From: Geosiphon pyriformis uo1
Lineage: Eukaryota; Fungi; Glomeromycota
Length of the DNA: 64,000 nucleotides
Assembly (NCBI GenBank): GCA_016748015.1
Contig: JAAOMT010000096.1
Location: forward strand, 515,087-579,086
Direction: 5' to 3'
Positions 6,020 through 62,039 of the stretch are shown here, in pieces (position 1 is the first letter of the stretch; each line of letters opens with the position of its first letter). The notes under the pieces were generated by a model. That model was given only the letters and a program-made list of their open reading frames with translations. It made no database searches and had not been told where the DNA came from. Made by a program: the position numbers and the translations under genes.

Positions 6020-8265
6020 TCTCTTGACCATAATGAAAGTGAAAAATTTATCAAAAATATAATTTTTTTTTCTTTTCTCTCCTTTGTTTTTTTTAGTTAT
6101 TTCTTCAAATACATTTTTATTTGTAATAATAGAACTAGTAAACTTATCTGTTAGTAGTTCTGGCTTTGGTTTGGCTGAATTAGAAATCTGCTCTAACACC
6201 AAAAAAAAGCATGTGAAAAATGTTTACTTTTATAGTATGTTGTATAAAAAGCCAAAAAAACCTGAAGCTAGTAGTAGTATGATTGACTTGTCTGCTAGAT
6301 TTTTGAGTTTAATAGATATTAAAGTTTTTGATATGAAACTTACAATGTTCTGGGGTGATAAAGTTGGTAACATGGCTAATAGTATTAGTGGTTTTTCTGA
6401 TGTAAAAAATATAAAAAATATGTTTGCCAAAAAAACCAGCTATATAGACTTGAATACTTCTGGAGACAGTAAAAATAAGGATAAAACAACATCTAAAAAA
6501 ATCTGTGTTCTAATGTTTGATAATATAAATAATAATAATAACATTTTAATGCTTTTTCTTTTCAAGTTTATTGGCTTAGTGCCATTGGCTGGATTATATG
6601 CTTCAGAAAAATGTAGTTTTAAGCCAGTCAAATCTTTTACATTGAATATTAAACTGTTTGCTGTACTTGGTAAAACCAATTATAATAAGTTGATTGCTGT
6701 AAAAAAAATTTTCTATTATATTGATGGTTTTGGGAAAGCCTCTATTCTCTCAAAATTTTTTGGGATAATCAAATCTTTTTTTACATCTGAATTAAGTTTG
6801 AAAAAAACAAAAAATTTGGCTATCAGTAAGAAAATTCTGGTTAATAATAACATAAAAAAAAACAAATAGTCATATAAATTAGAAAATAATTGTTAAGAAG
6901 ATTTTAGTAAATCTTTTTAAATTAACAATAAAGACAGTTTTTTCCAAATTTGGCAAGATTACTTTAATTAAAATACAGTTAATTGGTCTTTGGCAAAAGG
7001 TCTTAGTTGAATTTAAGTTAGCAAATATTGTCTGTTTGGTTATTTTTAAGTAGTCAGTTCTCATGAGAAAAAATTCTGTATGTATAGCTTTGGTAATTAA
7101 TAATAAACAGTCATAAGTATCTAAGAATCTTTATTAAGTATTGTTGTATATTTTGCCAGTTGGCACTACTGTTCATAACTTATCTAATTTGTTGGAATTA
7201 TATAATAAGAAAACCTATTGTATTGGTCATAATCCGAGTTTATATGTGTATAATAGATGTGTTATAATTTGTTTTGCTAATAAGGCATTCAAAGTGGCTG
7301 TTATTGGCTTTATTTTGGTTTTTAAGAATGTAAATTTGTGTTAAACTGGTTTTTCTTTGGCCTATTGTGCCCTATGTAAACAATTTGGTTATGTTTTTAA
7401 TATGTGTTTAGTAAATAAAAATCTTGGAGTTTATAGTAAATAAGTGATTACTTTTTAGGATCAGGTTTATTTAGCCAATATATATAAAAAAAAGCAAGTT
7501 TTAATTGCTTGTCTGGTATTTTTTGGTAAAAAAACTTGGGTCAGATTGCTAATAGTTTCATTTTTTATGTAGTGCCTTTGGTCTCTTTTAATGCTGATTT
7601 ATTTTCAAATGTTAAATCTATCTTGCTAGTTTTTTTAAAAGTTAATACTAGGTTTGCCACTTTTAAGCACAGTCTTATCAGTCTTGTAAAACAGATTAAC
7701 AAGCTGGCTAAAAGATTGAATGCATTCAAACCAACAATTTCTCAGCCTAGCTCTAAATGTTAACTATTGATAACCTCTTTATTACAGAATCAAGAAATAA
7801 ATATAGTGATAAGTAAAAGTTTGGGTGCAGTCATTAATAATGAGATTGTTGTAAAGACAGTAGTTTTTGATTAATTGTTTGTTTCAAAGTTAAAAAAAAA
7901 CATAGACAATCTGTTAACTACAGTTATGAACTTGATGATCAAGGTAAACAATTTTAATTTAAGTGCAAAAAAAATTTTTTTTTAATAACAAATCTGGTAT
8001 AAAAGTTTACTGCTTGTAATGTTAAAGATTTAAATATTCCTGTTAAGAAAAAAGACATTGTTTATTGACATGTAAATTCGAATATTATGGTTTTTTTTGT
8101 AATAAAAATAAAGTTAAGGTTTAGTATTAAATCTTGAATTGCAAATAAGTTTATGGAAGTACAAATTTTTATATCTGATTTGAAAAAAGGTTTTCTTGGT
8201 ACTAGAATAACCATTATTATAAACAATTTTTTGGCTTGACATGTTTCTAAGATAAAAGAAATTCC
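6020..8265 (+). mobile_element. Decayed non-LTR retrotransposon (LINE family L-A): ORF1 plus the start of the ORF2 AP endonuclease
   Basis: ORF 6084-6869 and following fragments; RRM-like SKFGKITLIKIQLIGLWQK; decayed CX2CX4HX4C knuckle near 7365-7410; endonuclease start (ACNVKDLN) near 8010. Homologous to 32517-33960 and 60877-62039. Confidence 0.8.
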
Positions 8266-10370
8266 AACATACTATTATTACCAAAAAAACTCACTTTATC
8301 TATTTAAAGTCTTATTAATTCAATTATTACAATAATAAATTCATCAAAAAAAAATAAACTGAATAAAAAATCTTGGATTTATATAAAAAACCAAAAGTAA
8401 ATAGGCTTTTTTAGTTGTAGTGGTATCCAAAAAAAATAAAACTCTACACTTGTATATTGACTACTACCAATTAAATACTATTATTAAAAGAAACATATAT
8501 CTATTTATTAAAATTAATGCAATGCTAAATCAATTTAATAATACTACTTTCTTTTTAACTATTGATTTAACTATTAGATTTTGACAAATAAAAATGGATC
8601 TAAAAAGCAGAAAAAAAACTGTTTTTATCACTAAATATAATACTTACAAATTTACAGTCATGTTTTTTGGTTTTACTAATGCTTTTCTTATTTTTTAATA
8701 TTTAATGGGCAAAATATTTAAATCAGTAAAAAAAAACTTTATTCTAATTACTTAAATAATATAATAGTATATTCAAAAATCTGGAATAAATATTGTTACT
8801 CATAAAAATTAGGAATTATAATAATAAGTAAAATAATTAATCAAAAATAGACATAATAAAAGAAGGAATTCCAGAATTTCTCTTGAAAAATTGCAGGATT
8901 TTAAGAAATCTTATATAATATAAATTAGATATATATAGTGAAAATATTAAAATATTCATTTGATTCAGACAGAACAGTAATTAACAATAACTATTTATCC
9001 CATATCTCTTTTTTCAAAAGATATTTTTTTATGACTTAAAGTGAAATTATTTCTATATTAATAAAATTATTCATTATTATTCAATTCATATTATTATTAC
9101 TTGATTAAAGAAATATTAATCTATTCTATTCTATCAATACTTTATGTTAATAGAATTCAATGCTTAACTATACTAGATTAATAGCTCTTGATCACAGTTA
9201 TTAATAGAATATTAATTTTTTATTTTTATTTATTTTTTATTTATTTTTTTTATTTCATTTTTTTGTTGTTTACTAATTAATTAAAAAGATTAAATGTTGA
9301 GTATTTGATGTTAAGAATAGTCTGGTAAAAAACCTGAAAACAAAAGTAAAAATTTAAGGATAGTTTACTAGAAGGGCATAACTGTTAAAATAAACTAGTC
9401 ATTATACTAAAAAAAAAATTCACATAAGAAATCATTAATTAAATCTCTGTCTATTATATAAAAAACTTAACCAAAACCTTCTAACTCCAAAATCTAGAAA
9501 TTACCAATATTACCAGCTATTGAGCACCAAGTTATAAGTTTGTTATTTGTTTTAACACTCCAAATAATCATCTATAACAACATCTTAAATATTTGTTAAA
9601 AGTTTTTAATTTTTTCAAAAATGTTGGTCTTAAAATCAATCCAATTAAATCTTTTTTTGAATGTCAATCTACCCAATTTTTTGGTTATTTTATTATAAAA
9701 GATGAAATTTTCTTTAATCCAACCAAGATTATAAAAGTTCAGAATATTAAACAACTAATAAATATATATAAACTATGTTTTTTTTTGGTTTGGCCTTTTA
9801 TTATCACAAATTTGTTAAAAATTTCTTTAAAATTGTCTCTTTTTTTAATTAATTACTCAGAAAAAATGTTAATTGCTACTAAAGTATACAATAACAAAAA
9901 ACATTTAAAATTCTAAAAAAAAATTGGTTACAAAATCTATTCTTAAGCAATTTAATCTGAATTAATTTTTTATTTTCTATATTAATACACCTAATTATAG
10001 ACTTAGCACTGTTTTCTTATAAAAAAATAAAAATAATAAAGAACATACTATAGCATATGTCAATAGAACTTTTTTATTAGCAGAACAGAACTATTCAATT
10101 ATTAAGCAAGAATGCTTAGCAGTAGTTTGGTTTACCAATTATTGGAGCAAAGTTTTTGGCTGTACAATAAAAAAAATTTAAAATACAAACAAATAACTTA
10201 CTAGATATTTTACTTAGATAAATTTAATTATAATATATAATATTACAAAAAAGTTAATTATTAAAATACCAATACTCTTTTCAAACCAACTTAATTATTA
10301 GTAACTTTCTCTTAATCAAACATAATAATAGACTTGGACAACTACTTTGCATTAATAAAATTTTTGAATG
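8266..10370 (+). mobile_element. Decayed Ty3/gypsy family C RT-RNase H fragment, split by a solo LTR
   Basis: ORF 9593-9916 (KVFNFFKNVGLKINPIKSFF) is a C-to-T/G-to-A decayed copy of ORF 53069-53728. The 8266-8793 part matches the RT region at about 53740-54270. Confidence 0.85.
8794..9579 (+). mobile_element. Solo LTR, family A
   Basis: TGTTAC...ATAACA termini. Flanks ATAT/ACAT give a 4-bp TSD with one transition, and removing the LTR restores the RT reading. Shares AATAGCTCTTGATCACAG and the 3' end with LTRs at 19491, 31650 and 62040. Confidence 0.85.
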
Positions 10371-15595: not shown

Positions 15596-15649
15596 AAATA
15601 AATATGTATAATATAAATTTATATTTTGTCAATATAAAATACAGTTTTG

Positions 15650-17930
15650 TTAATTTTATAGAATAAATTAGTAAATTGGCTAAGAAATTAAATACATTTG
15701 TGCTAATAATTCGTTAATTTAATTTTAAATATTAGTTATTAATGATTTTTTTATTACAAAATTAAGTGAATAATATAGTAATAAAAAAAAATTTAAATGT
15801 AATCACTAATGACAAAACTGTTTTTGTTTTGGAATTTTTAGCTTTTTTAAATATTGTTAAGTTAAAAAAACAATTAAATAATTTGTCTAAATTAATTATA
15901 AGTTTGATAACAAGATTTAATAATTTGGTTCTAGTTTTAATAATTACTTATTTAAAAAATTGCTATATGCAATATACATAAAATAAATAATTTTATAAAA
16001 CAGAAAAATATTGTTAAATAGTATAAAAAAATAGACAATATAATATTTATAATTATTAAGACAAAATTTAAAAAAAAGTATATTTATAAATTATTAATAA
16101 GTTTAATAATATTAAAATTTATATTTTTGGTTTGAATTTTGGTTATTTGAGTATTGGTATTATTATTATTATAAAAAATTATTTGGCAAAACATTTTTGC
16201 AAAATTATTGATTTTTTTAATTAAATTACTCTTTAAAAACAAACTTTTAATTAATTTTATGCTAATATAATTATAATTACATATTTTTTTTAAGCTAAAA
16301 ATATTAATATATTGATTGCCAAAACTATTAATAAATTTTTTTTTGTGGTTTTAAATAATAATTTTAATAAAAATAGATCTTATAAAAATATTAGTTTTAA
16401 AAAATACTTAAATATAAATCTGGTCAATTCTTTAATAAATAGTATATTTACTAAAATTTCTATATGAAAAATTTTAGAAGTTAAAAAAAAATAATTAATT
16501 ATATTTTGGTTTTTACAGATTTTAGTAATAGAATAGTATATAAAAGTATAAAAAATATTACAAATTTCTTTAATATTGATTATTAAACAGTTTTTGTTTT
16601 TATTGGTCTAAATAGATTTTTAGATATATAGCTAAATTTTGTTTACAAACAGACAAACAAAAATAGATAAAAATTTAATATAAAAAATATAAATAATGCT
16701 AAGTAGTTTTGTTTTAAGGATATTATTAAAACCAATTTTGTTTTGTTTTATGTTAATTTTGTTATTTTAAAAAATTTTTCAGATTTGGATATTTTATAAG
16801 ATATAATTTGTAAAATAATATGTTTTTCTATAAATAAAATTTCTTTTAAAGTTTAACATAAAAAATATGATAATATTTTTTTTAAGCTGTTATTTAAATT
16901 ATACAAGTTGGAAATTTTTATGTTAAAAATTATTAAGACATTACAATCTATACCAAATATTAATTTTGTATTATTAATAGATAGTTAAAAGTTTTTTAAT
17001 ACTAAAAAAGCTTTAAGTATTCAGATTTTATTTTAATTTTAATATTATTTATTTTAAGCTTTGTAGTATTAAAAAGTTATATTATATGATTAAGCTTTTA
17101 AAGTCTTAAAAATAAAAAAATAAAATATTAGAATAGCTATTAACAAATACATAGAAAATTTTACAACAAATAAAAATATTTTAGAATACTTATTTCATTA
17201 AATAGGTTTTAACTACTTAGTTGTAAATAATAAGCTGCTTTTAGTTTTTAAAAATATTAAATTTAAGATAAATAATTTTATAGAAAGTTAAACTTAAAGA
17301 AAATCTGTCTTGAATTATATTTTTAACTTATAATAATATTAATATCTATTTTTAGACCATGTAAATAATAATGTTTTTTTTTGAAGTTATAAATATAATA
17401 AGTTTTGAAAAAATATTGAATAAATTAATAAGCTTTTTAATAACAAAACTGTTAATCTGTTTGATATTTTAAACAAGCTTTAAAAGCATTGTAACAATTT
17501 AATTTTGCACATGTTTTTAACTCTGTTTAATGTTTGTTTATTGCATAAATTAGGTTTTAAATCATAAAAAAAAGCTTAAGTATTAATAATTCTTAAATTT
17601 TATAAATAAAATAATGTTTTTATAAACATTTATTCTATTGTTTTAATTAAAACTGCTTAGAAAATTTTTTCTAAAATTTTTTTAAACAAAATTTTTTTAA
17701 TAAATAATAAGTTTAATAAACTTTAAAGTAATAATTTTTTAGTACTTAAAAACACATTAACAAAATTTTCTGTTTTTGCTATTGGCTTTATAATAAAAAA
17801 TGCTTTAAAAAAACCACAAACTTTGATTGGTTCTGTAAAACATAAAAAAAGGTTATAACTTTTTTAGATAATATTATTTAAAAAACAGTCTGTTTTAATA
17901 TTATTAGCAAAAATTTGATATATTATTTAG
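15650..17930 (+). mobile_element. Heavily decayed LINE (end of ORF1, endonuclease, start of RT)
   Basis: Colinear with 7670-8260 and with the reverse complements of 45500-47400 and 59700-61900; many stop codons. Confidence 0.7.
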
Positions 17931-21682: not shown

Positions 21683-22653
21683 TGTTACCAGAGGTTTTTG
21701 GTCTCTTTTTTTGCATGTTGTTAATGTTTGTCTGTTGCTAGTTTCACATTTTCTGGAAGCAATTAAACCTCCAATAACTGAATTTCTTTTCAAATTATCT
21801 CCTATAATTTAAACCACTGGACTTATAGGTGGAATGGCCAATTCCATGCCAGTTACTTTGTATAATTACATTGTAGTAAACATCAACTTTTTTCCAGAAA
21901 TTGCTTGTCTGAAAGCTTACTAAAAATGTGTAGTTACTTTGTTGTAAAAATCAACTCTTCTACAGGAATTTTGTCTGTAGACTACCCTAATAATTATAAT
22001 AAAAAAAGTAAAAAAAAATAAAAAAAATGTAAAAAAAATATAATTGTGTTAAGGAAAACGTTTTTTATTCAGGTCTGGAGTTACTAACAAATTACTGAAA
22101 TTAGTAGTTAATTAATTTTAAAATGTTAGTTTGTGTTAAGAAAATTTCAAGTGTAATAATCAAAGAATTTGGTTTTTGAATATTTAATTTTTATTTAAAA
22201 TATGTAAAAAGTGATTTGTTCTAATTAAGGTATCTAAAGTAAGATACTATGGTAAAATATTAAAAGATACATTTTCTTAAAGAAAAAAGCTCTTCTTTTA
22301 TACAACTTGTTGTAGTACTAGTCTTTGAACTTGCACTTTTCTCTTTGCTATAATTTTGGTGAACTAAAGATATATTTTGGCAAACTACAAGTTATTTTAC
22401 TGAACTATTGATTATTTCGGCCAATTTTTATTAATTTCGGCGAATTTTGACTATATTATATGGTTCAGGATATTGTGTAATTTGATCATCTTAATTTTTA
22501 TGATACAAATTGAATTATTGATTGAGTAATAATATTTGATAATTTGATTAAAATAATAAGTGATAATTGAAATGGTAATAATATATGTTAATTAATAATA
22601 AAAATTATAAAGATAATTTTATGCTAATTATAGCTAAAATTCTATTGGTAACA
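21683..22653 (-). repeat. 3' LTR of element B
   Basis: Near-identical to 30594-31542 and to the reverse complement of 48809-49781. Confidence 0.92.
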
Positions 22654-23340
22654 TAATTTCCTCCTCAAGATTGAGCTCCGTTAAAGTCCAAGCACTATCT
22701 GTAATGTCAAGATAGTGGTTCAAAATAATTGAGGTGATTTTGTCTGAAAATTGTTGAAATTTCAGTTCTATGAGCTTTCCAATATATTGAATTTTCATTG
22801 AATAAAGTATTAAATTTTGTAGAATGTTTTCACAAGTGTTGAATAAATTATAAAATCTGAATGCTGCTCTAAGTTTGTAGTGAATGTTTGTTAATCCAGC
22901 TGCTGTCTTAAATTCATTGTGAATTTGTTTTTGTATAGTTTTAGAGGTGATGTTGATTGCTTCAATTTCCAGTTTTTGTTCATAAAGTGTTTTTCCAATA
23001 TGAAAATATCTATGTATAAAGGTATGTTCATTGTTTTGTTTATTAAGGAATAGTAGAAGTTTTTGTTGAATTGTGGCATTTGGTGAAATATCAATAGAGG
23101 CAAATAAAAGGTTTTCTTTTAGTGTTTGCTTCAAAAGTTTTGGTAATTGATTTTCAGAATAACTTCTTGTTTTTCTTCTATAAAGATAATAATTCTAAGA
23201 ATTATTTACTACTGGAACTGTGGTTTTTTTCTAAATGTAATTAATTTGACTTCCATTAATCATTATAGATAAGTCAGAGAGTGTTTTTAAAGCTAACATT
23301 AATTTTTGGGATATTTGTTGGATATTTTGGAGAATAATCA
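22634..23340 (-). pseudogene. Accessory ORF3 of element B (166-aa open part 22634-23134, broken N-terminal extension); function unknown
   Basis: Lies downstream of integrase and reads through the PPT into the 3' LTR. Resembles ORF 50896-51363 of element C. Confidence 0.7.
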
Positions 23341-23589
23341 TGATAAAAATGACTAACTAATAAAAAAATAAAAAAAATTATTTTTCGGTGTAAGGTTTTT
23401 ATTTGTTTTTGGGTTTGGGTGTTTCTTGTAATTATTTACTATTTTTGGTTTTCTGTTTTTGTGTGTTATTAAAAAAATTATTGTAAAAATATGTTGAATT
23501 AAGTGTTTAAGTTTGGTTGTTGTTTTATTATAATTAATGGTTCTAAATTTCAGAGAATATCTTCAGAATTAATTAAAGGGAAATGTATA

Positions 23590-24880
23590 TCAATTTGTGA
23601 AATTAATGGTTTAAGATTGTTTCTGGAATAATAGTGTTTCAATTGATTGCCATGTGCAACTTTTGCTAGTATTTTGTCATCAAGTTTTAACTTGTATGAT
23701 TCATTGCCTAGAATTTCGTGAATATAAAATGGTCTATCTCATTTATGTTCAAATTTTCTATTCCATTGTTTTTCAGCCTTAGTTTTGTGTAAGAAAACTT
23801 TATTTCCAACTTTAAATTTGTTGATAACTGGTGGCAGTTTGTTGTCATGTCTTTTTTTTTGTAAGGCTTGAGAGTATTCAATATAAGTGGCTGCTATGTG
23901 TCTTTTTTCTTCCAATGTACTAAGGAGAGTGTAGACTCTTCTTTGGAGTGTTTCTTGAAAGTTTTTTTTATTGATTGGTTGTACTAAGTATGTTTTTACT
24001 GTGAAATTAATTGGTAATGTTGCTGTCTTTCCATAAGTAAAATCAAATAGTGTTTCATAGTATCTTGTTTTAGTGTTCTGTATGCTAGTAATACTAATAG
24101 AATAAAGATATCTCATTTCTGCTCAAAATCTATTGATACTTTGGCTAAAGATTCATATAATGTTCTGTTAAAACATTCTACAAGTCCATTTGTTTGAGGG
24201 TAATAAGATAATAATAGAGGTTTTTTGATATTAAATTGTTTACAAATTTTTTGTATCAAGTTGTTTACAAAATGTGTTCTTTGATCAGATAAAAGTTCAA
24301 TTAGATATCTATGTCTACAAATAATGTCTTTATATATAAAATTTGCTACTGATTTTGCATCTGCTTTTTGAATGATTCTAGCTTCAGGCCATTTGGTAAG
24401 ATAATCTACTACAATTGCAATATAAAAATTTTCTTGGGTTGTGATAGGTAATGGTCCGACTAAATTAATTCCAACTTTGTTAAAAGATTGTCCAACTTTG
24501 ATTGGATTTAAAGGTTTTGTGGGGTGAGTTTCTCTTCTTTTTTAACAACTATTACAAGATTCTACATATTGTCAAATGTTTTTTTGTATGTGAAACCAAA
24601 AGTAATGTTTAAGAGTTTTTTAAATTGTTCTATTTCTTTCCAAGTGTGCTGAAGAAGGATCTGTGTATATGTTGTATAGAATTGTTTTCTTTTTATTTTC
24701 TTGTATTAATCTAAGTGATTGGTTTGGGTTTTTGTAATTTTTGTAATAGATTTTGTTATAATGTATAAAATATTGTTTGGATTGGTATTGTAATTAATGT
24801 TTTTTACTTGAAGACCAATTTTCTGACATGGTAAAAGTCTCCAAATAGTTTTTGATGTTGTTGTAATTTCTGGGATCTAT
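23590..24880 (-). pseudogene. Integrase of element B
   Basis: HHCC remnant (TDPSSAHL), core GINLVGPLP...VDYLTKWPEA...SDQRTHF, and C-terminal GPF-like region (ORF 23739-24116). Confidence 0.85.
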
Positions 24881-26779: not shown

Positions 26780-27210
26780 TCATTCAGTTGAACCAAAATT
26801 TTGAGTTTCTCTTTCACTTTTTCTTAATTGTTTTCTGTTGTTAACTGATTGTAAACTCAAAATGTTAATTAAGAGTAGATAAATTGCTTGAGCAATCTTT
26901 TCAGCATGTTTAATTTTGAATGGTTTGTCTGTTTTATTTTGTAACATGATAGTAATATTTTCAGTGTATTTTGCATCTATAACTCCTCCTCTAACATTGA
27001 TCCCTTTGCTGGCTAAGGATAATCTAGAAGCAATTTGAACTATTGCTTTTGATAGAATTTCAAGAGCAATTCTAAGGTTGATTTTGGTTAAAGATTTTGG
27101 TTAAAGAACCAAAGTATTTTTTTCTGGGTATTATAGATCATATTCAGCATCTATATCATGTGCTTTTTCTAACTTGATTCTTTGACCATTATTGTTGAAG
27201 TATTTGAGTT
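26780..27210 (-). pseudogene. Trimeric dUTPase domain inside the pol region of element B
   Basis: The minus strand shows all five dUTPase motifs in order and in one frame: KAHDIDAEYDL, IASRLSLASKG, GGVIDAKYTENI, EKIAQAI, SERETQNFGST. Several conserved Gly residues are hit by G-to-A changes. Confidence 0.9.
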
Positions 27211-28149
27211 GTAGGGCTGATTGATTTTCAGTAAGGTAGATTGGAATTGTTGTAATTCTTTCTTCTAGCTCAAATTTTCCAAACTCAATTTCCTTCTAGT
27301 CATCTTTGCTGGATAAAGAGATGCTAAAAGCATAACATTTTGAATACTATTTATTATTACAAGGCATGATACATTCTTTATACAGTTAAATATTCATTTG
27401 CTTTAATCATTGAATTTGAGCTTCTTGAGTTGGATAAGTGTGGCTTGCAATTTGGTGATATGTTTCTACTTTATCTTCATAGTTAAATCCAGCTAATTCT
27501 ATTATGTACTTAATGTATTTAGCTTTTTTCATTTGACAAACATCTTCTTATGTGGCTCTATTAATTAAAACTATTGCTAAATTAAAGATTATTTCAGCAT
27601 TATAAAAATAATGATAGAGTTTTTTGAGAGCACTATTGTATGCTGCATTAAAGAGCTGTTTCTCTTTTAACTTTTTCCAAAATTGATAGGGCATATTGAC
27701 AGATTTGATCACATACTCCTCTTTTTATTGTAACATCAATCCAGTTACATTCTTTTGATAGTATATCTCCATATGTAAAACAAGAAGTGTTGTTCTATTT
27801 TCCACTTTGTTTGAAATATCCAAATCGTTCTTTATGGCATGCTTTGCAAAAATAACAGATATAAGTTTCATATTTCTCTTCTGGGGAAATACATGCTCCC
27901 ATGGATAAAAGTTTTTTCTTGTAATCTTTACATTTAAGTAAGATGTAAGATGATTGTTTCTGTGGTTCTGATGTGGAGTATCTAACTACATTTTATCTTT
28001 TGGTCTTCTTAAAAATTTCTTGTTCTGTTTCTTCAGCCCAATTGGATGATAATCTAAGAGCCATAAAGGTTTCAGTGATTGATAGTTCTTTATTCTCTTT
28101 AAATTTGAATACTAAAGCTTTTTCAGATTTTTTATTAAAAATACCACAG

Positions 28150-30593: not shown

Positions 30594-31542
30594 TGTTACT
30601 GGAGGTTTTTGGTCTCTTTTTTTGCACATTGTTAATGTTTGTTTGTTGCTAGTTTTATATTTTCTGGAAGCAGTTAAATCTCCAATAACTGAATTTCTCT
30701 TCAAATTATCTCTTATAATTTGAACTGCTGGACTTATAAATAGAATGGCCAGTTATTTTGTGTAGTTACATTGTAGTAAACATCAACTCTTTTCCAGGAA
30801 TTGCTTATCTGGAAGCTCACTAAAAATGTGTAGTTACTTTGCTATAAAAGTCAACTCTTCTATAGGAATCTTGTCTGTAGACTATCTTAATAATTATAAT
30901 AAGAAAAATAAAAAAAAATAAAAGAAATATAATTGTGTTAAGGGAAACGTTTTCTATCCAGGTCTGAAGTCACTAACAGATTACTAAAATTGGTAGCTAA
31001 TCAATTTCAAAATCTTAGTTTGTGTTGAAAAAATTTCAAGTGTAATAATCAAAGAATTTGGTTTTTAAATATTTAATTTTTATTTAAGATATGTAAAAAG
31101 TGATTTGTTCTAATTAAGGTATCTAAAGTAAGATACTATGGTAAAATATTAGAAAATACATTTTCTTGAAGAGAGAAGCTCTTCTTTTATACAACTTGTT
31201 GTAGTACTAGTCTTTGAACTTGCACTTTTCTCTTTGCTACAATTTTGGTGAACTAAAGATACATTTTGGCAAACTACAAATTATTTTACTGAACTATTGA
31301 TTATTTCGGCCAATTTTTATTAATTTCGGCGAATTTTGACTATATTAAATGGTTCAGAGTATTGTGTAGTTTGATTATTTTAATTTCTATAGTACAAATC
31401 GAATTATTGATTGAGTAATAATATTTGATAATTTGATTAAAATAATAAGTGATAATTGAAATGGTAATAATATATGTTAATTAATAATAGAAATTATGAG
31501 GGTAATTTCATGCTAATTATAGCTAAAATTCTATTGATAACA
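30594..31542 (-). repeat. 5' LTR of element B
   Basis: Paired with 21683-22653; the PBS follows immediately on the minus strand. Confidence 0.92.
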
Positions 31543-35402: not shown

Positions 35403-36349
35403 ATATTATAATATTAACAAAATAAGTTTAATAAATAATTATTTTCAAATTCTAATTTAATTTAAAATTTATTAGTAAAAAATATTAATGTAATAAATAA
35501 TGATAAAATTTTTTTTATAATATTATTTTAAAATTATAATTTTTTTTGATTAATAATTAATTTGTAAAAAATTTAAAAAGATTTTGTTTTAATTATTAAA
35601 CATAAAAATAAAAAATTTATTAAAAAAAAATTAAAAATACAAAAAACAAATTATTTTATTGAATACCATAATAATATTATAATATAAAATAAAACAAAAT
35701 AAAAATATTTATAAGTATTTAAAATAACTAATTGAAAAATATAATTATTGTTATATAATTTATTATTTAAAATAATTTAAGTAAAATAAATTAAATAAAA
35801 AATTATTTAATATTGTTTATACATGTTTTTAAATTTTATTCTGAAATTTACAAAAGAAATTAAAATAACAATTAAAATTTATATTTTATTATAATAATAT
35901 TAAAAATTATTAAATTTTAATTAAAACTATTAGAATTAATATTATAAATTTTTTTATTTATTCTTAAAAAATAACAAAAAAAATGTTTTTTATATGTTAT
36001 TAAATATTTTTTAAAATTATATTAATATATTATTTTCTTAAATTATTATAAATTAATTTATGCTTAATCTATTTATATTCTAAAAAAATTTAAAAAATTT
36101 AATAAGTTGTTTAATTAATTTTTTCTAAATTTAATTATTATTAAAATATGATTATTTTATACTGTAAAAAAATCAAAAAAAATCATTTTTGTTATTTTTA
36201 AAGCTTTTATATTATTCTTAAAATTAACTAAAAATTTAAAAATAAAATTATTATGTTTTTCTTTAATAAAATTATTTTTATTATTATTAACAATTTCAAT
36301 AAACTTATAATAAATATTGTTTTTAAAAATTATAAAAACTTTTTGTCTT

Positions 36350-39668: not shown

Positions 39669-40487
39669 ATGGCAACCACGACAACCGCGAGGGACATTCC
39701 TGCTGTTAAAAGGGCAGAGTCTGGCGCAGCCCACCCGACTCATTATAGCACCACGCCCGCTGGGACCATTTATTCGAGCACCCCTGGAGGTCAGGATTTT
39801 CGGTTTTTCGCATTATTAAGAGATTGAGAGTTTGGTGCATTAATTGTTTTTAGACGTTTTCGGGCTTTCATCCGTAAAAATGCCGTTTTTTGATTTACCT
39901 GCTTTTTTCGATTATGTTTTATGAATAAAAAATCATTCTTTGTTAGTGGGTTTTATTTTCCCAATGAAATGACATAATTTGGGGGTCTCTCGAATTGAGC
40001 TTCAAGAACATGTATTGTTCCACATCAAGGATGGGAGAAAAATCAGTCAAAGCACACTAAAGATTCCAAATTTTATTTAAATTATACAATGGATGATTCA
40101 GGTTCTAGAATTATTTATGATCGCAATACACTTTTGAATCTCGCCAATTCTCCTTTGGCCAAGACACCACCAAGTAATTTGGTCTTCGTTCCAGGAGTCA
40201 CTAAACCAACTGCCCAGCACTCTCATGATAATAATCAGACTTCGGCTCAATTTGGTGGGCATCTGGCACCACCGCAAACTGTACCATTTCCTGGTTTGAA
40301 ACAAGTAAATGAGAATGCAAATAGCAAAAAGTCTCGAAATGATGACAATGGGCATCCCCATGGTAAAGGAATTCTCTTATTTATCTAGTTTTTCTTCAAC
40401 ATTATTTGATATATTTGTTTTGAAGGAGACCAAAACAAGGATCAGCATAACGACCATCATGATATGTTCCACATGGACATGGAATAG
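39669..40487 (+). CDS. EIF4EBP: eIF4E-binding protein (4E-BP, metazoan-type), 147 aa, 3 exons
   Basis: Exons 39669-39789, 40102-40362 and 40426-40487 (GT-AG, 444 nt). The protein reads ...[39 protein letters not shown]...VPGVT...DMFHMDME*. It has the canonical YXXXXL-phi motif, the four TP/SP phosphosites, the non-canonical PGVT motif and a TOS-like FHMDM. Confidence 0.95.
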
Positions 40488-41459: not shown

Positions 41460-42300
41460 CTTATATTTTTATAATTACAATTAAAACAAAGAATAAAAAA
41501 GTTGTAAACTTTTTATTTTTATTAATAAAAAACTTATAGTTATTAAACTGCTTAATAATATTTTGTATAAATGCTTTTTTTAAATAAAATAATAATAAAC
41601 CAATTTTTTGTTAATTTTAAAACACTGTTTTTGGCTTTAAATAAAATTTTTTTTATTTAAAGTTTTTTTAATAATCAATTAAGACTAGTTTTAATATAAT
41701 TGTTATTATTATAAAAAATTCTAAAATTTTAATAATAAGTTAATAATAAAATTATTTTTATTATTATTATTATTTTATATTTGTTTAAATAATTAAAAAA
41801 GCAAAAAAACAATTTTTTCCTTTTTTTTTAAAACAATTAACTTTTTTAAGATATTTAAAAAAGTTATTTTTAAAAATACTATTCTATTTTTAAAGTCTGT
41901 TTTTTTTTGTAAAAAATAAAATATTGGTTTTATTTGTTTTTTTAATATTATACTAAATTTATAATTGTATTAATTTTATTATTTAATTTAAATTTGATTA
42001 TAAATAATAGTTTTTTATTATTTAAATAATAAAATTAACAATATATTTACCAAAACTAATTTTAATTAATACATAATTAAATTGCTTAATACATTAAATT
42101 CTAATTAATTTTTATTAGTTTAAAAAGAAAAACAATTTATGTTTTTATATATAATTTTAATTAATTAATCTCTTAAGTTATTTAATTTTAAAAATTATGC
42201 TAATTAAATAAAAACTTAAGTTGTTTTTTATTTTTTAATAGTATTGTTTTTAATAATATTTAAAAAATAATTGTTAATTATTATAAATTTTTTAAATAAG
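41460..42300 (+). mobile_element. Extremely decayed LINE L-B ORF1 relic
   Basis: Residual colinearity with 18041 and 36350 (AAAACAAAGAATAAAAAAGTTG..., AAATAAAAACTTAAGTTG) in DNA almost free of G and C. Confidence 0.5.
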
Positions 42301-42679: not shown

Positions 42680-45600
42680 TCACTACCTAAAATTATAAAA
42701 TCATACAAAATCTTATATTAAGTATAATTCATGCTTTTTCTATATATAACCAACTATTTAGGCCAATTAAAATAATATTATATACTTAAACTACTTATAA
42801 CAAAAAAGTCACACAAAAAACCAAAACATATACTGGACAAATGAAAATGCAAATTAAAACAAACATAAACATCTAACTTAAAACCAAAATTATTAATCAT
42901 TTTAAGAAATTACAAGAATATTAAACCAAATACAGCCAAAATTACAAATCTATCATGTAATAAAAGACTATATTTTTTATAATGCACTTTCAGTTTGGCA
43001 GTTAGCAACTACATAGTAGATCTGTAATCTTTAACAAAACTTCAGACCAAATTAATAATTAATAATACATTATTAGATCTGCCACCTAATAAATATATCA
43101 TGTTAGCTATTTACTTCTTTATTACAAAGTCTTTGGTCAATAACATATATAAATAATTAAAAGATTTAGCCTTATACAGAGATTAAATTATTATACTGTC
43201 AGTAGTATAGGCATCTAGCAAACCAGTTCATATTTTAATAATTTTCAAAATTAGATTTATCTTAGTGCAATTATTATGAATACAAGAAAACATGTGATTA
43301 GAGTTTTTAACCAACTTATATTAAATGCACAACACATTAAAATAACTTGAATTATATAATTTTTTTTTTAACTATAAACAACCAGTAATATAGAGTTTTT
43401 ATAAAGTAAAACTAAAGTATTATAAAAGCTAAACTAGTAAAACCTAAATGAACTTGACCATTAAAATGTCATACATTAAAAGTTTTATGCATATTAATTA
43501 GACTATACAAAGTCTTGTTTACAGTATTATTAGTATATTTAAAATTCCAACCAACAAAATGAATGGCTTTAAAAAAATGTCTAACAAAATAATAGATGTT
43601 TTTAGAAACAAATCTGTTTTTAATAGCAAAAAAGTGGCATAGTATTTTAACAGACAGCATAAAATTAAACATGGTAGCAGTATTGACAAAAAAATCAATA
43701 CACTAATTACCAAAAATTTCAGAATAACTCTTGATCTTATTTTAATTGACTAACAGATTCTTTGACACAATAATCTAATGAATATGTTCCCTTTTTATTC
43801 AGAATTTATCATAAAAATTGGAACTGATATTTTTTTTAATTGACACTTATATTTAATAATATTGACTATTTATAAATAACACAATTGAACTAAATACTAA
43901 AACATATTTCAGAGCAAGAGTAATGGTTTGCAGTTTTATTAGAATCAAAAAAAGCAAGTTATTTATCTTAACTTCTACACTTATGTTAATATCCAGAAAA
44001 TAGGCAGTAGTATCATCATGAGCATTTACAGATCACAAATTTTTGATTAAATTATCTATATAAACAACTATATTACTAGACCCATTTTTTAAAAAGCATT
44101 TGTCAATAGAACCAAATTTGCTTAAACAGCAAACAGAAGTAAAATGAAAAACCAAAGCACAATTACTATTTAGACTATTATCTTTAATAAACTTGATCAA
44201 TAAATTGAACCAACCAAAAACCAAATCTCTAAAATTCTGTTTCTTTTTAAAATATATTCTATGTAAAACATATACTATAATAATTTAGAAACTGGTTTGC
44301 AAAAATAATACCAAACTTTTTTAACAAACTTACTATACTCAAATACTATTTCAAGCCTAAAACATCCACAATAGCAATATTAGTACCAATTCAGAAAACA
44401 TCAGACAGATTATTGCTTAAAAATAATTTACACAATATAAAAGTGTTGGTTATATTAACTAAAAAACAGTTCATAAGATTAATCAACAATATAATTAGAA
44501 AGCAAAGGAATTGCCAGAACATCTAACTAATGATTTACAAATTTATAGCTCTGTATTTAAACAATCTGTTAAAAATGTCTTTCAAGTTAGCAAAAACTAC
44601 CAAATTCACCAAAAAATTTTCAGTTTGTATTTGTTTAAATAACTTTAAACCATATAACTTAAGATGAACAATGACTTTATTAAAAAAATTTTTAAGTAAA
44701 TTGGTCTTAAGTTTTAGCTTTTTTCTTAATATCTTGTCTTATTTTTTATATACACTTGCTAAAAAATAACTAAATTGTAATCTGTAACCAATTATTGGCT
44801 ACAAAACAGCAAACACTAGATATAAAAACTGCTTATTAGATATGATTTTTCTCAAAACCAGATTTGTAAAAAACTTAATATTTAAGTAAGTCTTAATAAG
44901 ACTTGGTTTAAAAAAACTGTTTATAGACAAAAAAATGGCTAAGTATTTATGTAATTCATCTTTCTTAGCTATTGAAATATTTGACTTACTTATTATTAAA
45001 TGAGGAACTTTTACTCTTTGTTTGATGAGTATAATAACCATCTTATCTGTATTAATTAAAATGTTATTAATTTGAAAAAATTCATTAGCTATGTTTAAAA
45101 TATGCTAAATAGCAGTCATACTATTTTCAATTCAAATTGTGTCATTCATGAAAACTCCTACTGTCAAAAAAGATGCTATGCTACTTCTAAGATCCTATTT
45201 GCCTGTTTGCATAAAAATTTTGAATCCAATCTGTAGTCATATAAACTGTCATGTTTTTTAATCTTATAGAGCAAAGAGTTATAGAAGATTTTTTACAGCA
45301 AAGGTAAAAATACCTCATCTTAATCTAGTCTATCATAAATAGTATACCTTTTTATAAGCCCAAAATCTGTTATTACTTAGTTAATTTAATCATTGTATAT
45401 ATTCTTAAAAAATCTAATAAAATAAAAACACATCTTAATCTTAGCCAAATTGTTCTTTAAATAATATTATCTAACAGAATTATATGTTTTATACATGTTC
45501 TGAAAAACTAGTTACAGCTTTCTGTTTTTTTTCAATATATCTTTAATAATAAAACCAACAGCAAAAATTGAAGTTTAAATGAACATATCTTTTAAAACTG

Positions 45601-48808: not shown

Positions 48809-49781
48809 TGTTACCAGTAAAATTTTAACTATTAATTAGCATGAAATTACTCTTTTAATTCTTATTATTAATTAACATATATTATTATTATTTCGATTAT
48901 TACTTATTATTTAATCAAATTATCAAATATTATTACTTAATTAATAACTCAATTTGTACCATAAAAATTAAAATGATCAAATTACACAATATCCTGAACT
49001 ATTTAATATAATCAAAATTCGCCGAAATTGATAAAAATTAGCCGAAATAATTAATAGTTTGTAGAAATAACTTGTAGTTTACCAAAATGTATCTTTAATT
49101 TACCAAAATTAGAGCAAAGAGAAAAGTGCAAGTTCAAAAACTAGTACTACAACAAGTTGTATAAAAAAAAAGCTTTTCTCTTCAAGAAAATGTATTTTTT
49201 CATAGTATTTTACTATAGTATCTTACTTTAAATATCTTAATTGGAACAAATCATCTTTTACATATTTCAAATAAAAATTAAATATTCGAAAAACAAAATC
49301 TTTTGATTATTATACTTGAAATTCTCTCAACACAACTAACATTTTGAAATTAATTAGCTACCAATTTCAGTAATCTGTTAGTGACTCTAGGCCTAAATAG
49401 AAAACGTTTCTCTTGTTAAAATTCTATTTTTTTTATATTTTTTATATTTTCTTTTACTTTTTTTTATCATAATCATTAGGGTAGTCTACAAACAAGATTT
49501 CTGTAGAAGAGTTGATTTTCACAGCAAAGTAACTACACATTTTAGTAAGCTTTTAGACAAGCAATTCTTGAAAAAGAGTTAACATTTACTACAATGTAAC
49601 TACATAAAGTAACTGGCATAGAATTGGCCATTTTACTTATAAGTCCAGCAGTTTAAATTATAAGAAATAATTTGAAGATAAATTCAGTTATTAGAGATTC
49701 AACTGCTTCTAGAAAATGTGAATTTATAACAAACAAACATTAACAATATTTAAGAAAAGAGACCAAAAACTTCTAGTAACA
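48809..49781 (+). mobile_element. Solo LTR, family B
   Basis: TGTTAC...GTAACA termini, perfect 4-bp TSD ACAT, reverse-complement match to both LTRs of element B. Confidence 0.92.
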
Positions 49782-50260: not shown

Positions 50261-50926
50261 TGTTACGGGTTGGAGTAACAAGCTAACGGATAGCAAGAAA
50301 GAACAGTATTGTATGGTGATGGAAATAAACAAAGAGGGAATTACAATAAGGGAGCGAATTGAATAAGTAGGAATTCAATGTGCGTGATCAGTCTCATAAA
50401 AATCACAGTCGCTAATCTTTTCTTAAATCTGAAGGTAAAAGAATAGTCTGTGATTGTCAACAAGATAACACTGCTGCTATTATTCTATGCCTCAACTTGG
50501 CAATTTTTAGAATCAATAACAGGTATTGTTGTGCTTTTCAATTGTTTTTTTATTCAATGAATTACAAGAGCAAGCCAATTGCTTCTTAGGCTAATTCTAA
50601 CAAATACAAATCAAGAAGAGAAAAAGATAAGGTATGTGAATGCCAACAAGTAGATACTTAAAGATAAGGAAAGGGGAATAAGCGATTATGAGAAGAAGTA
50701 ATTAATATTGTTTGTTTCATTACTTTAATCATGTATTTCTACAGCTAAGGGAATCATTGCTTATATAGCTATCTAAAGTGGTCAATGACCAGGTCAATGA
50801 TCAGGTCAATGGTTAGGTCATTAATCAGATTAACAATTACTATCTAAAAATAGGGTGGCTAATTATATGACATTAGTGGCTAATACATGTGATAACTAAT
50901 AAAAACTATGGGTTTCAACCATAACA
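50261..50926 (-). repeat. 3' LTR of element C (666 bp)
   Basis: Paired with 57252-57989. Confidence 0.95.
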
Positions 50927-51552
50927 TCATCCTTTCCAAAGAGATTGAGCTCCGGCGAAATCAAGCTATTTATGAGATAGTCTATGTGAAGGGTTTTGTC
51001 TAACTCAAAACTAACTAGTTTGTTGAAGTTTTTTGTAGATAGGGTATATAATACTTGAAGTGAAATAAGTTTTGTATCCAAGAGACCAAATCTTTGTATA
51101 AGAGTTCTGGCTCTTCTAGCAATGGTTAAAACTTTTGGGACATCTAATTGTATAATGCCCAAAATTTCCCCTTGTATCTCTGAAGTTGTTTTCTTCATGA
51201 ACTTTATGTCTTCTATGATTTCACCAAGGCAACCATAGAGTTCTAGTCGTCTTTCATATGACAAGTTTTTGTCTATGGGCAAGATTTCTTGTATTGTTTT
51301 TCCAATTGTGCTGGAAGGTGAAAGTATCACTGTTGTTATGCTTTCCAGCAGGTATTTATCCATTTTGCTACCAATTCTTTCTCTTCTGGTAGTTGTTTTC
51401 TTTGGTCTGATAACAGTGTGAGTTCCACTGTTGTCTGTTATGATGGTTTGTTTTTCGATAGTCAGAGTAGCATTTGGATAGTTCTTGATTCAGTACTTAT
51501 GGAGAATATAGAAAGCGTTTTGAATGTTTTGATTCAGGAAATAATTGTTCAT
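50896..51552 (-). pseudogene. Accessory ORF3 of element C (about 218 codons from ATG 51552 with one internal TGA; 155-aa open part)
   Basis: An upstream ATG is in frame with ORF 50896-51363. The frame overlaps the PPT and 3' LTR. No signal peptide or transmembrane segment is apparent. Confidence 0.75.
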
Positions 51553-51619
51553 GTCAATTAAAGATACCTCTGTTTTGGAAATAGTGCATTTATTTATATC
51601 TGATTTTTGCTGATCATTT

Positions 51620-52913
51620 GGGTCAGTATTACTATAACAGGTAACCAATCAGGTTGTTTGTAATATTTCTTGAATCGCATGCCATGAACAGGGCAATCAC
51701 TGAATATTGTTCCATATTGATCTTGTAGGATATATGAACCATTGTTCAAAACTTTGTTGACTATAAAAGATTCTTTTCAGCAGCTGGAGAATTTATCACC
51801 ATAGACATTGTCTCTGTCTGAACGGTATTCCAAAACTAAGTCATCAATACTTAAGGAAAATGTTTTATAGGTCTTTTTCTTTTTGAGCTTCTCTTGGAAC
51901 TGTTTTATCTTTTCAAAAACAATTATCCATGCTTCTACCAATGAGTCAAGAATGGTACCAAGTCTTCTTTGCAAAATGTCTTTGTAATCTCCTATTGTTA
52001 TTTTTTCAAAAGGTATTGTTTCTATATCTGTTTCTATTGGTAGAGTTGCCATTTGTCTATAGAGCAGATAAAAAAGTTCATAACTTGTTATGTCATGATT
52101 CACAGTTCTGTAGGCAAACAAAGCTGAAGGCAATACTTTGTCCCATAGGTTGGTTTCTTCACTGGTTTTGGCTAGGGTTTCACATAGTGTTCTATTGAAA
52201 CGTTTCACTAGGCCATTTGTTTAGGGGTAATAAGGAGAAGAGAGTTTATGATGTATTTCCATTTTTTTGCAAAGTTCTTCAACCAGTGTACTGAGAAAAG
52301 CTCTTCCTCTATCAGATAAAAGTTCTTTGGAGCAGCCATGGTGACAAATAATATCTTCATAAATGAAATTGGCAATTGAGACTGCTGTTTGATCTGGAGT
52401 GGCTCTTGCTTCTACCCACTTTGTAAGATAGTCGGTAGTTGTAATAATGTATTTGTTGCCATCAGGAGTTACTGTTAAAGATCCAACAACATCTATACCA
52501 ATTCTGTCAAATTGTTGACCAACAGAAATTGAATGGATATCTTCCTTGCGATTGGGTTTTCCTCTTCTTTGGCAGGTATCACAAGTTTTGATGTATTCAG
52601 CAATGTCTTTTCCCAAGGTAGGCCAATAATAGTGAGCTAAAGTTTTCTGAATTGTTTTTGTTTTTCCAAAGTGTCCAGCTAATGGATCAGTGTACATATT
52701 GTAGATCACAATTTCTCTTTCTTCAAATCTAATAACTCTCTGGAGGTGGTCAAGATCTTTTTTATTTCTTTTATATAACTGGTTCTGGTGAATCAAATAG
52801 AAATTTGATTGTTTGCGCAAATGTTCTCTTTGCTGTCAAGTATAGTCTGGTGGGTATTGTCCTTTACCCAAAAATTTCATTAAAACAGAGTAGTTGTCCA
52901 AGTTCATTATCAT
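51620..52913 (-). pseudogene. Integrase of element C, in its own frame with its own ATG
   Basis: ORFs 52221-52820 and 51777-52208: GHFG...CDTC zinc finger, GIDVVG, DYLTKWVEA, SDRG, RFNRTL. No chromodomain is seen. Confidence 0.92.
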
Positions 52914-55644: not shown

Positions 55645-57199
55645 CTACCAGTTTAAAGGCTGATAAACAGTGGCTTCAACCAGGGGATCCTCTCCAAAAA
55701 AATTGATGTTGGCATGATTGGGTCTTTGGTTGGGCACATTGTTGTTGTTGGGTCTGTTGTTCTGAGCATCATTGTTTCTGGGAACTGGTGGAGGCAGTGG
55801 AGGATTGTTGCAATCTCTTGAAAAGTGTCCAGTTAATCCACAGCGATAGCATACAGATGGGCCACAATTTTGTTGTCTTTGATAAGGTGGTTGCTGGGAC
55901 TGATTGAAGCGTGGTTCAAATCTGGGTCTTTGTGGTTGTTGATTTTTTTTGACTGCTTGGGCTAAGGGTTCTAATAACCAGGCAAGATTTGCTGTGAGTC
56001 TGTCTATTAACTGTTCATTTGGGATCTTGAGTGTGAGTGGCAAAAGAAGTAACAGCCATTTGAGGGGCAGGGGCCATGACAGAAGCAGAAGCAAAAACTG
56101 GTAGTGTAGATCCCAAGTGCATCCTTTGGTTATCTTCAATTCTTTGTGCTAATTCAATGGCCATATCCATGGTGGAATTATCTTTCAGGGCCAGGAGGAG
56201 CCAAAGAGCATATGATAGATCAGTTCTCAATCTTTTTGTGAAGGAGTGAATTTTCTGCTCTTCTGTCTAATTTCTCCCAGAGTCTATACGTTTGATTAGC
56301 TTTCTAATAGCCTTGGCATATTCAGTCACTACTTTTCCAGAACCTTGGGTTCTTCTTTCCAATTCCATGCACCATTTTGATATTAATATTGGGGTTCTGA
56401 ACTTGGTCTCAAATCGAGTAGTGAAAGAGGTATTTTCTTCTCCAGCATTGAGTGGTGTCCATCTAATTATTCTGTGTTGAGCATTGGCATCTGTTTCTTG
56501 TGAGAACCAGGTAGTAGAAGAGCCTTGGAGGTAGCCACCAATGATTTGGAACTTGTATTCTTCATCATACTGGTTGGCTGTGGCAGCTCTCTCAAAATCA
56601 TCCAACCATTCAATTGGATCTTGTGTATTACCTCTAAATAGTGGTAGTGGGATATTGTTTCTTCTTCCTAAAGCAGTTTGTATACCTTGAAGGGCGGCCA
56701 GAATGTTTGCTTGCATGGGGTCATTAGCCATTGGTTTAGGGATAACTGTTTGTGTAGACAAGTCTGATTCACTTGATAAAAGATCAAAAACAGGGGCAGT
56801 TTGGTAACTTTCTTCTTCTGTTTCAAAGGGAGTTTCAGTTGCTTGATGGGCAGCAATCCAAATGTGGATTTGATGATTCAGATATTCGAAATCAGGAGAC
56901 TGTTGTTCAAAGATTGCAGAATATAAGAGTTGATTAATACTGTTGTTTCTTTCTTCAAAGTCATTTTCAAAATAAGCTTGGTCAAAGTAATAGGTCATAT
57001 AAGCTGTGTAGATTTCAGCTGAATGCTCATTCAGAAACCAGTTCCAAAAGTTTTGGAATTGTCTACTGGATTGTTTTTCAAGAGAAAAACAGATCAAACA
57101 GGAGGGCAGAGAATTAAGTTCAATGAAATTTAGATCGTTTCTATTGTGTGCTTCAAAGTGTTCTTTTGATTGCTGTGGCAGATATGAGTAATTATCCAT
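55645..57199 (-). pseudogene. Gag of element C with a CCHC nucleocapsid knuckle
   Basis: ORFs 56267-57199, 56015-56230 and 55645-56139; DPIEWLDDFERAATANQY; CYRCGLTGHFSRDC; one stop and one +1 frameshift near 56020. Confidence 0.92.
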
Positions 57200-57251: not shown

Positions 57252-57989
57252 TGTTACGGGTTGGAGTAACAAGCTAACGGATAGCAAGGGAGAACAGTAT
57301 TATATGGTGATGGAAATAAACAAAGAGGGAATTACAATAAGGGAGCGAATTGAATAAGTAGGAATTCAATGTGCGTGATCAGTCTCATAAAAATCACAGT
57401 CACTAATCTTTTCTTAAATCTGAAGGTAGAGGAATAGTCCATGATTGTCAACAAGATAACACCGCTGCTATTATTCTATGCCTCAACTTGGCGATTATTA
57501 GAATCAATAACAGGTATCATTGTGCTTTTCAATTATTTCTTTATTCAATGAATTACAAGAGCAAACTAATTGCTTCTCAGGCTAATTTTAACAAATACAA
57601 ATCAAAAAGGGGAAAAGATAAGGTATGTAAATACTAACAAGTAGATACTTGAAGATAAGGAAAGGGGAATAAGCGATTATGAAAGGAAGTAATTGATATT
57701 GTTTGTTTTGTTACTTTGATCATGTCTTTCTATAGCTAAGGGAATTATCATTTATATAGCTATCTAAAGTGGTCAATGACCAGGTCAATGATCAGATTAA
57801 TGATTAGGTCAATGATCAGGTCAACAATCAGATCATTAATCAAGTCAATGATTAGGTTAATGATTAGGTCAACGGTCAAGTCATTGATCAGATCAACAAT
57901 CACTATCTAAAAATAGGGTGGCTAATTATATGACATCAGTGGCTAATACATGTGATAACTAATAAAAACTATGGGTTTTAACTGTAACA
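57252..57989 (-). repeat. 5' LTR of element C (738 bp) containing a 12-bp tandem array at about 57770-57900
   Basis: Paired LTR; repeat unit GGTCAATGATCA. Confidence 0.95.
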
Positions 57990-60900: not shown

Positions 60901-62039
60901 CTTAATATTTAAAATATTATGACTTATTACTATATTAATTAAATTTAAAAAAACAAATATAAAATTAATTGTTTTTTCAACATCTCTAGAATTAGACCAT
61001 ATTGAGGTTTTTACAATTAAGTTTTCTGCCAAAAAATTTATTAGCCCCAAATTAAGGCACTTTTTAAAACTAACACATTTACAAAAATCATCTTTATTAA
61101 AATTATTACTTAAAATCACAAATAAAGTTTTGTTTATAGTCTTAGCAATTAGTAAATTGACTTTTCTAGCTTGAGCCAAGTATGTTGCCAAAGTGGCACC
61201 AACATACAGCCCCAAAATTGAAATAGAGAGTTTATTCTTAAAAAACAGTTTAATAAACAAAAGTTTACTAGCAATCTCTAAAATTTTGTATACATATTTT
61301 GCTAAACTAATGTTTATAATAACTGTAATATCAGAACCTAAATAACCAAAACCTAAATGACTAGACTTCAAACTAAAAGTAAACATTTGAATACTATTAA
61401 ACTTGTTTATAATCTACAAACAAATCTTTTCTTTTAATTTTGTCTTAGTAACAATAAAAATCAAATTGTTCATTTCTCTATGCTTACAAATAATATCCTC
61501 TTGCTTTACAAAATTGTTCATATTTTTAACATTGCATATAGCAAATTTCTAGATTAAATCAGTTATTGTTAAGGAAAAATGTTTAAACCCAAACTTTTAT
61601 TGTTTACTTTGACTAGCAAACTCATAATCATATCTGATAAATTGTTCATTTTTTCGTTAAATTCCTTGACAATTATTTAATTTTAAGATTTTACTTTTAT
61701 TATAATCTTACTACTAATGACTACACCTAAACTTTTACTTATCACTATATTTACCCTTTAATTTTGTGATAAAAAGATCACTAATAACTAACATTTAAGA
61801 TTAGGCTAAAAAATTATTAATCTAAGTACATCTAATCTTTTAGCTAACTTTTTGACTTGTTCTATAAGGTTAACAAAACTGCTCTTAAGAATGGCAAACC
61901 TATTATTTATGTCTAAAGAAATCAGTAGAAGAGATTTAGTATTTAAAAATAAACCAATATTAGAAAAAACCAAAGGCACCACATAAAAAATAGAACCATT
62001 AGCAATTTGAGCTCAAGTCTTCTCACCAAATGAAACTGG

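Follow-up and report, generated by a model that had tools for sequence, protein, structure and literature searches.

Ty3/gypsy retrotransposons of fungi are mostly described as having two open reading frames (ORFs), gag and pol, often with a chromodomain (PMC3248453), and some of them, including PosPlaTy3, Tmt1 and elements of Phanerochaete, contain a dUTPase or an 'additional ORF' of unknown function (PMC2864245). In plant and insect elements, sense additional ORFs (aORF-3S, or env-like) are known between pol and the 3′ long terminal repeat (LTR) (PMC7264820), and third ORFs (ORF3s), as in bdelloid rotifers, are typically expressed from spliced messages (PMC5408684). LTR elements make up 41.2% of the genome of Geosiphon pyriformis (PMC11952901). 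We examined a stretch of 64,000 nucleotides (nt) from G. pyriformis uo1 (contig JAAOMT010000096.1, positions 515,087 to 579,086 of the forward strand; hereafter the window, whose own numbering is used below), in which two decayed Ty3/gypsy elements on the minus strand, B and C, each carry an ORF3 downstream of integrase. Extra sense ORFs at this position are of an already known kind; the ORF3 protein family was not found described, and literature searches with thin coverage of subscription journals brought up no fungal Ty3/gypsy element for which such an ORF, or an integrase encoded separately, is reported; the element table that goes with PMC2864245 and the repeat library published for PMC11952901 may bear on the point. 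ORF3 is a third gene of these Ty3/gypsy families: it is element-borne, selection on the element maintains it, and its product is predicted to be soluble.

The ORF3 of B occupies positions 22634..23341 (minus strand; 235 codons) and that of C positions 50896..51552 (minus strand; 218 codons); both lie 3′ of integrase, with the last 20 nt and 31 nt, respectively, in the 3′ LTR. ORF3-B has in-frame TAG triplets at codons 37 and 49 (23233 and 23197) and its last 186 codons are stop-free, and ORF3-C has a TGA at codon 21 (51492) followed by 197 stop-free codons. When each local sequence was simulated 2000 times with a first-order Markov model, no run was as long as these stop-free stretches (the longest had 154 and 167 codons). 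At the first stop of ORF3-B, relatives read Gln in 77 of 77 regular-expression matches, and at the second, with a looser pattern, 45 read Gln and 20 Arg; at the ORF3-C stop all 86 read Trp. The relatives have sense codons at these sites, so each family is open and the stops in the window copies arose by decay once the copies had inserted. Stops per 100 codons are 0.85 in ORF3 versus 1.95 in its own pol for B, and 0.46 versus 0.60 for C, numbers too small to show that the host preserved ORF3. For the 3′ region of B no RNA data set was listed as containing it, which says nothing about expression. An earlier note on this DNA, made from the sequence alone, had proposed a sense ORF that follows integrase and runs through the polypurine tract (PPT) into the 3′ LTR of both elements, and the coordinates and stop-free runs confirm it; the peptides that it quoted are present in the ORFs, except that B reads RRKTRS and not KKTRS.

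ORF3-B has 174 relatives (62–81% identity among the 120 listed) and ORF3-C has 127 (55–90% among the 120 listed); the listed relatives, 120 of 120 in each case, are G. pyriformis hypothetical proteins, and none is identical. Full length is found in 55 of 120 ORF3-B relatives and exactly 218 residues in 20 of 119 ORF3-C relatives, counts that are not unbiased fractions because gene models favour open copies. A profile of the B family had 35 matches among 1.84 billion representatives, including the metagenome proteins P0263 and P0265 and the Geosiphon families E (P0266/7) and D (P0268/9). With a profile of the distant members, 50 of 2159 candidates were recovered (49 from Geosiphon, plus P0265), seven of them fused to an integrase SH3 domain in gene models; no named species other than Geosiphon was among the profile-search matches. 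Similar ORFs may be present in Rhizophagus annotations. Identity between B-type families is 20–33% (B1 and B2, 69%). ORF3 proteins range from 218 to 244 residues with 0–3 Cys, and conserved acidic or His residues are absent.

The constraint on ORF3 is seen best against L001, a metagenome relative with the layout RT-RNase H (RT, reverse transcriptase), stop, integrase, spacer, ORF3, motif, PPT and LTR; the pattern that found L001 was built from known ends, so its recovery is by construction. Its integrase has one nonsense codon and its ORF3 is intact. Between the B and L001 ORF3s, identity is 42, 53 and 44% at codon positions 1, 2 and 3, and the protein alignment has a z of 10.6. The proteins thus align while the DNA does not, which points to constraint on the protein and not on the DNA. 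Curated families and solved folds gave no match for ORF3, and a sequence search of the PDB with the B-type and C profiles gave 0 matches at E 10. Matches of ORF3 proteins in PHROGs were scattered and weak (the best, phrog_20548, at E 0.0012 for one protein), an NCBIfam FtsQ match (E 0.00046) had only 19.5 bits where the cut-off is 366, and both were set aside; a plasmid search gave six records, at E 2 only. Signal peptides and anchors were judged by hydropathy scan: no 19-residue window exceeds 1.12 (Kyte-Doolittle) in either window protein, and among nine homologues one C copy peaks at 1.65, the others reaching at most 1.29. By that scan neither window protein has hydropathy of transmembrane strength, and the earlier description of a conserved accessory ORF that is open in its family, not env-like, mostly helical and without a described domain holds.

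The 3′ end of ORF3 lies on a conserved DNA motif. In B this pre-PPT motif (core GGAGCTCA; 22667..22682, minus strand) encodes the peptide ELNL and is followed by the PPT (22654..22666, minus strand), directly ahead of the TG of the LTR; in C, motif and PPT together were read from the sequence at 50927..50953 (minus strand). The core is common to B, C, L001 and a further sequence, L002. Between B and L001, 33 nt at the motif align (94% identity) and the remaining ORF3 DNA is unalignable. The motif is read in two frames: B-family copies mostly have ELSL or a variant at the ELNL site, and the D family and L002 read it in another frame (ending FAGAQF or FAGAQI) and end short of the PPT. ORF3 extends into U3 by 20 nt in B, 31 nt in C and 32 nt in L001, and not at all in the D family or L002. 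Since the ORF ends on a conserved cis motif and PPT, both ELNL and the U3 read-through arise from this arrangement, and the read-through would have no function of its own. Of the earlier proposals, it stands that both ORFs stop inside U3, if only by 20 and 31 nt; ELNL as a shared protein motif gives way to a conserved DNA motif, and the nef analogy falls, the read-through of 6–10 codons being incidental and absent in relatives. No common hairpin was found at the motif in the four sequences folded, no copies of it were found in LTRs, and in viral contigs 212 pattern matches yielded none that could be confirmed, with 0 matches for the DNA motif.

L002 is a 2-kb contig from which pol is absent. 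Its 167-residue ORF (261-764, minus strand) ends on the pre-PPT motif and is preceded by a Gln-rich, coiled-coil-like ORF (1108-1578, minus strand) that is not integrase. The link of L002 to the B type is weak (0–3 of 500 shuffles; hhalign E 0.011), and no link to C was found (295 of 300 shuffles score higher). It may be a non-autonomous element, or one that carries two accessory genes.

Whether the B-type and C-type ORF3s are homologous depends on how they are aligned. The motif order that the earlier note saw in both has no significant local alignment behind it (BLASTP E 0.15 at 19% identity; hhalign E 0.19, or E 0.033–0.039 with deeper B-type profiles). HMMER scores of three C copies were matched by 4, 35 and 169 of 500 shuffles, no C member was among the matches of the B profile or the distant-member profile, and a G-x-T-N turn of the B type is absent from C in the joint alignment. 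All of these weigh against homology and favour two unrelated genes, independently acquired at the same position, an explanation that we nevertheless consider unlikely, given the equal length, position and order of elements. It is also opposed by global alignment, in which B and C align with z 4.0 and C and L001 with z 5.3 (0 of 300 shuffles each). Summed over 23 C copies, the global score against the six B-type representatives is 99.8 and lies above all controls (shuffled −79 ± 40, maximum 25.5 of 300; reversed, maximum −21; 178 overlapping decoys, maximum −29), with the qualification that neither C copies nor decoys are independent and that the score is not above controls against P0263 or the D family singly. 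P0094, a gene model joining B-type and C-type pieces, was excluded from the cross-search. ORF3 identity also declines alongside integrase identity (B and L001, 25–28% versus 55–64%; B and C, ~20% versus 39%), and the strongest local piece between B and C is an N-terminal helix-strand motif. Local statistics thus find no significant alignment, global collinear scores favour homology, and from these comparisons the C-type ORF is probably a highly diverged member of the B-type family.

Integrase is encoded separately from RNase H. In B, the decayed integrase (23500..24880, ends approximate, minus strand) begins past the stop that closes RNase H at ~24940-24938; in C, it is a separate ORF with its own ATG (51594..52913, minus strand; PF17921, PF00665), in a frame differing from that of RNase H, which terminates in TAA TAG at ~52975-52970. 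The corresponding junction of L001 is at 2942-2915 (minus strand), and its integrase ATG is flanked by A at −3 and by G at +4. In all three the stop lies four to five codons past the last RNase H motif, and L001 and C have an integrase ATG where B has ATA at the matching place; RNase H stop and integrase start do not touch, being at least 8 codons apart. The joint chance that decay placed all three stops there is roughly estimated at 1.5e-4, and the canonical in-frame RT-RNase H-integrase fusion is absent from B, C and L001. The integrase-tail ORFs gave no chromodomain match in Pfam, the tails ending shortly past an SH3-like part. The separate integrase ORF, together with a dUTPase in B, agrees with the earlier suggestion of a complex LTR lineage.

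A confident AlphaFold2 model of the homologue P0265 has an alpha-plus-hairpin N-domain (~7–38), a disordered basic linker (41–54) and a helical core (82–208) that holds a basic helix-turn-helix-like pair (helices 126–141 and 146–160). From this model we favour, with a probability of roughly 0.45, a reading in which the ORF3 product is soluble and helical, likely uses the helix-turn-helix to bind DNA, and regulates its own element. Translation of ORF3 would start at its own ATG, on a subgenomic or spliced RNA; the basic linker would act as a nuclear localisation signal for import; the helix pair, with the conserved G-x-T-N turn and an A-x-R-L-Y-x-x-F helix, would form a ParB/KorB-like DNA-binding unit; and the target would be the element's own LTR, with ORF3 as activator or anti-silencing factor. 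Weak fold hints to ParB/KorB and DUF1016, none of them significant, point to a DNA-binding regulator; DUF1016_N (PF17761) scores 15.3 bits for the window protein against a gathering cut-off of 32.8 (best E 0.0028), and hhalign gives E 0.15 with a shallow 7-sequence profile, from 7 of 25 loci after exclusion of near-identical loci and two with stops. A fold search with the low-confidence model of B returned nothing informative. The small helical nucleic-acid-binding protein envisaged in the earlier note is retained as mostly helical, its nucleic-acid binding being plausible only, from basic patches and non-significant fold hints.

The same basic residues would suit a different ligand: ORF3 might bind the element's RNA and not DNA, in Rev-like export, packaging, or translational control of the integrase and ORF3 messages. 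The Arg/Lys linker and basic helix, the need of two downstream ORFs for RNA-level control, and the conserved motif ahead of the PPT speak for this, whereas RNA-binding folds gave no match, no common hairpin was found at the motif in the four sequences folded, and the weak fold hints are to DNA-binding domains; we think it improbable. Less probable again is a partnership with the stand-alone integrase or the pre-integration complex, in which ORF3 would steer insertion and substitute for the absent chromodomain. B, C and L001 all have the stand-alone integrase, no chromodomain follows the SH3-like tail, and 4-bp target-site duplications (TSDs) ATAT and ACAT are present, yet two TSDs show no targeting and no test ties the two proteins.

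An env-like or membrane movement protein, spreading the element between nuclei or hyphae, would fit the place of ORF3, which is where env and env-like ORFs sit (PMC7264820; PMC5408684), but a transmembrane-strength window is absent from 10 of 11 proteins, Cys residues number 0–3, and the model is soluble and helical, so that this is highly improbable. The genome is AT-rich and strand-skewed, which might make the open frames a by-product of an A-rich strand, or they could be a host-domesticated gene; this view is largely refuted, as no simulation reached the ORF lengths, the protein is conserved where the DNA is not, and the window copies carry stops, in events too few to show host preservation. 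To return to the favoured DNA-binding regulator, its most extended form is a complex fungal Ty3/gypsy lineage (gag-pol, separately translated integrase and vertically inherited ORF3) whose own helix-turn-helix protein, of ParB/DUF1016-like bacterial descent, acts as transactivator or anti-silencing factor, a view that we regard as doubtful. If true, retrotransposons would have independently evolved a regulatory gene in the manner of foamy viruses, which could account for how these elements came to occupy so much of a glomeromycotan genome.

Both elements have the domain order gag-protease-RT-RNase H-integrase and the Metaviridae hallmarks of TG...CA LTRs, primer-binding site and PPT, with a clean TSD in C and a solo LTR and not in B, whose flanks are TCAC/GCAT. 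The 3′ LTR of B (TG...CA; 21683..22653, minus strand) is 91.9% identical to the 5′ LTR (30594..31542, minus strand; followed by a TGG-starting primer-binding-site-like sequence), with transitions in 73 of 77 mismatches. The 3′ LTR of C (50261..50926, minus strand; 4-bp TSD ATAT) is 93.1% identical to the 5′ LTR (57252..57989, minus strand; followed by a TGG-containing site of the same kind), with transitions in 44 of 46 mismatches. A solo LTR of the B family (48809..49781, plus strand; 4-bp TSD ACAT) is 85–88% identical to the B LTRs. Self-comparison of the window gave no match between B and C LTRs at E 1e-8, in keeping with the earlier statement that they are unrelated, and B and C are distant families (RNase H ~40%, integrase 39% identity). 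The affinity to Ty3 rests on PDB sequence matches of the L001 RT-RNase H (E 6e-47 for Ty3, versus a strength of at most 2e-20 for the other 10 matches).

The dUTPase domain of B lies between protease and RT (26783..27180, upstream end approximate, minus strand; PF00692, E 5.2e-16). A Cys-rich stretch of B (~27700-27950, minus strand) also lies between protease and RT, and C has a different one (~54480-54560) at the matching place. Just ahead of the gag stop of C is an in-phase heptamer, T-TTA-AAC (55651..55657, minus strand), of the established slippery-site pattern, and from its sequence it is likely a −1 frameshift site into pol; gag and protease of B share one frame, unlike the gag-pol junction of C. 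The C gag ORF has an N-terminal extension of ~155 codons (56735-57199, minus strand) ahead of a capsid-like part, neither of which matched Pfam. The U3 of C contains a 12-bp tandem array (50758-50841; 57761-57904), a candidate protein-binding array that in the 5′ LTR exceeds its 3′ LTR counterpart by 72 bp.

The window as a whole is AT-rich, strand-skewed in composition and crowded with decayed repeats; no tRNA genes were found in its 64 kb, and no ORF3 remnants beyond those of B and C. Amid the repeats is a host eIF4E-binding protein exon (39999-40388, plus strand; PF05456, E 3e-14). A C-like element is represented by a decayed piece of its RT-RNase H (8141-10366, plus strand; 76% DNA identity), which another repeat splits at ~9036-9577. 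A separate repeat family has three decayed copies (15642-17899, 44616-47454 and 58378-61881) without Pfam matches, and its residual frames we take, by eye, to be LINE-like. Long, AT-rich, imperfect palindromic repeats are present at 35650-36173 and 41637-42108.

The conserved soluble third gene and the split integrase define a more complex lineage than the usual fungal gypsy element, and hundreds of G. pyriformis 'hypothetical proteins' are copies of transposon ORF3. If ORF3 self-regulates, it offers a direct test of retrotransposon escape from silencing in mycorrhizal-type fungi. Among complex retroviruses, nef lies substantially in U3 and the foamy virus Tas protein is a DNA-binding transactivator. 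Like their accessory genes, ORF3 is small and lies between the genes for the enzymes and the 3′ LTR, with Tas the proposed functional analogue; unlike nef, it overlaps U3 by only 20–31 nt, and not at all in some relatives. ORF3 gave no sequence or fold match in PDB or BFVD, and the RT-RNase H comes nearest to that of Ty3 rather than to a retroviral one. ParB/Spo0J/KorB and DUF1016_N (the YhcG N-terminus) have a similar helix order, with Y-[YF]-x-I-G and R-x-[FL]-Y in register.

Compared with aORF-3S, ORF3 is alike in position, orientation and presence in most family copies; those are described as env-like, some with transmembrane segments (PMC7264820), whereas ORF3 is soluble, 218–244 residues long and without a sequence match. 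With the rotifer elements it shares a separate non-env ORF3 in a Ty3/gypsy-like element with a dUTPase in pol, but the rotifer genes encode GDSL esterases, DEDDy exonucleases or transmembrane/coiled-coil proteins (PMC5408684), and ORF3 here is inherited across families, with no acidic or His residue among its conserved positions. The fungal elements with a dUTPase have it between protease and RT, as in B, and likewise have extra ORFs, set apart from ORF3 by description and not by sequence; those surveyed are chromoviruses or are not shown with this protein (PMC2864245), whereas the elements described here have no chromodomain and a separate integrase.
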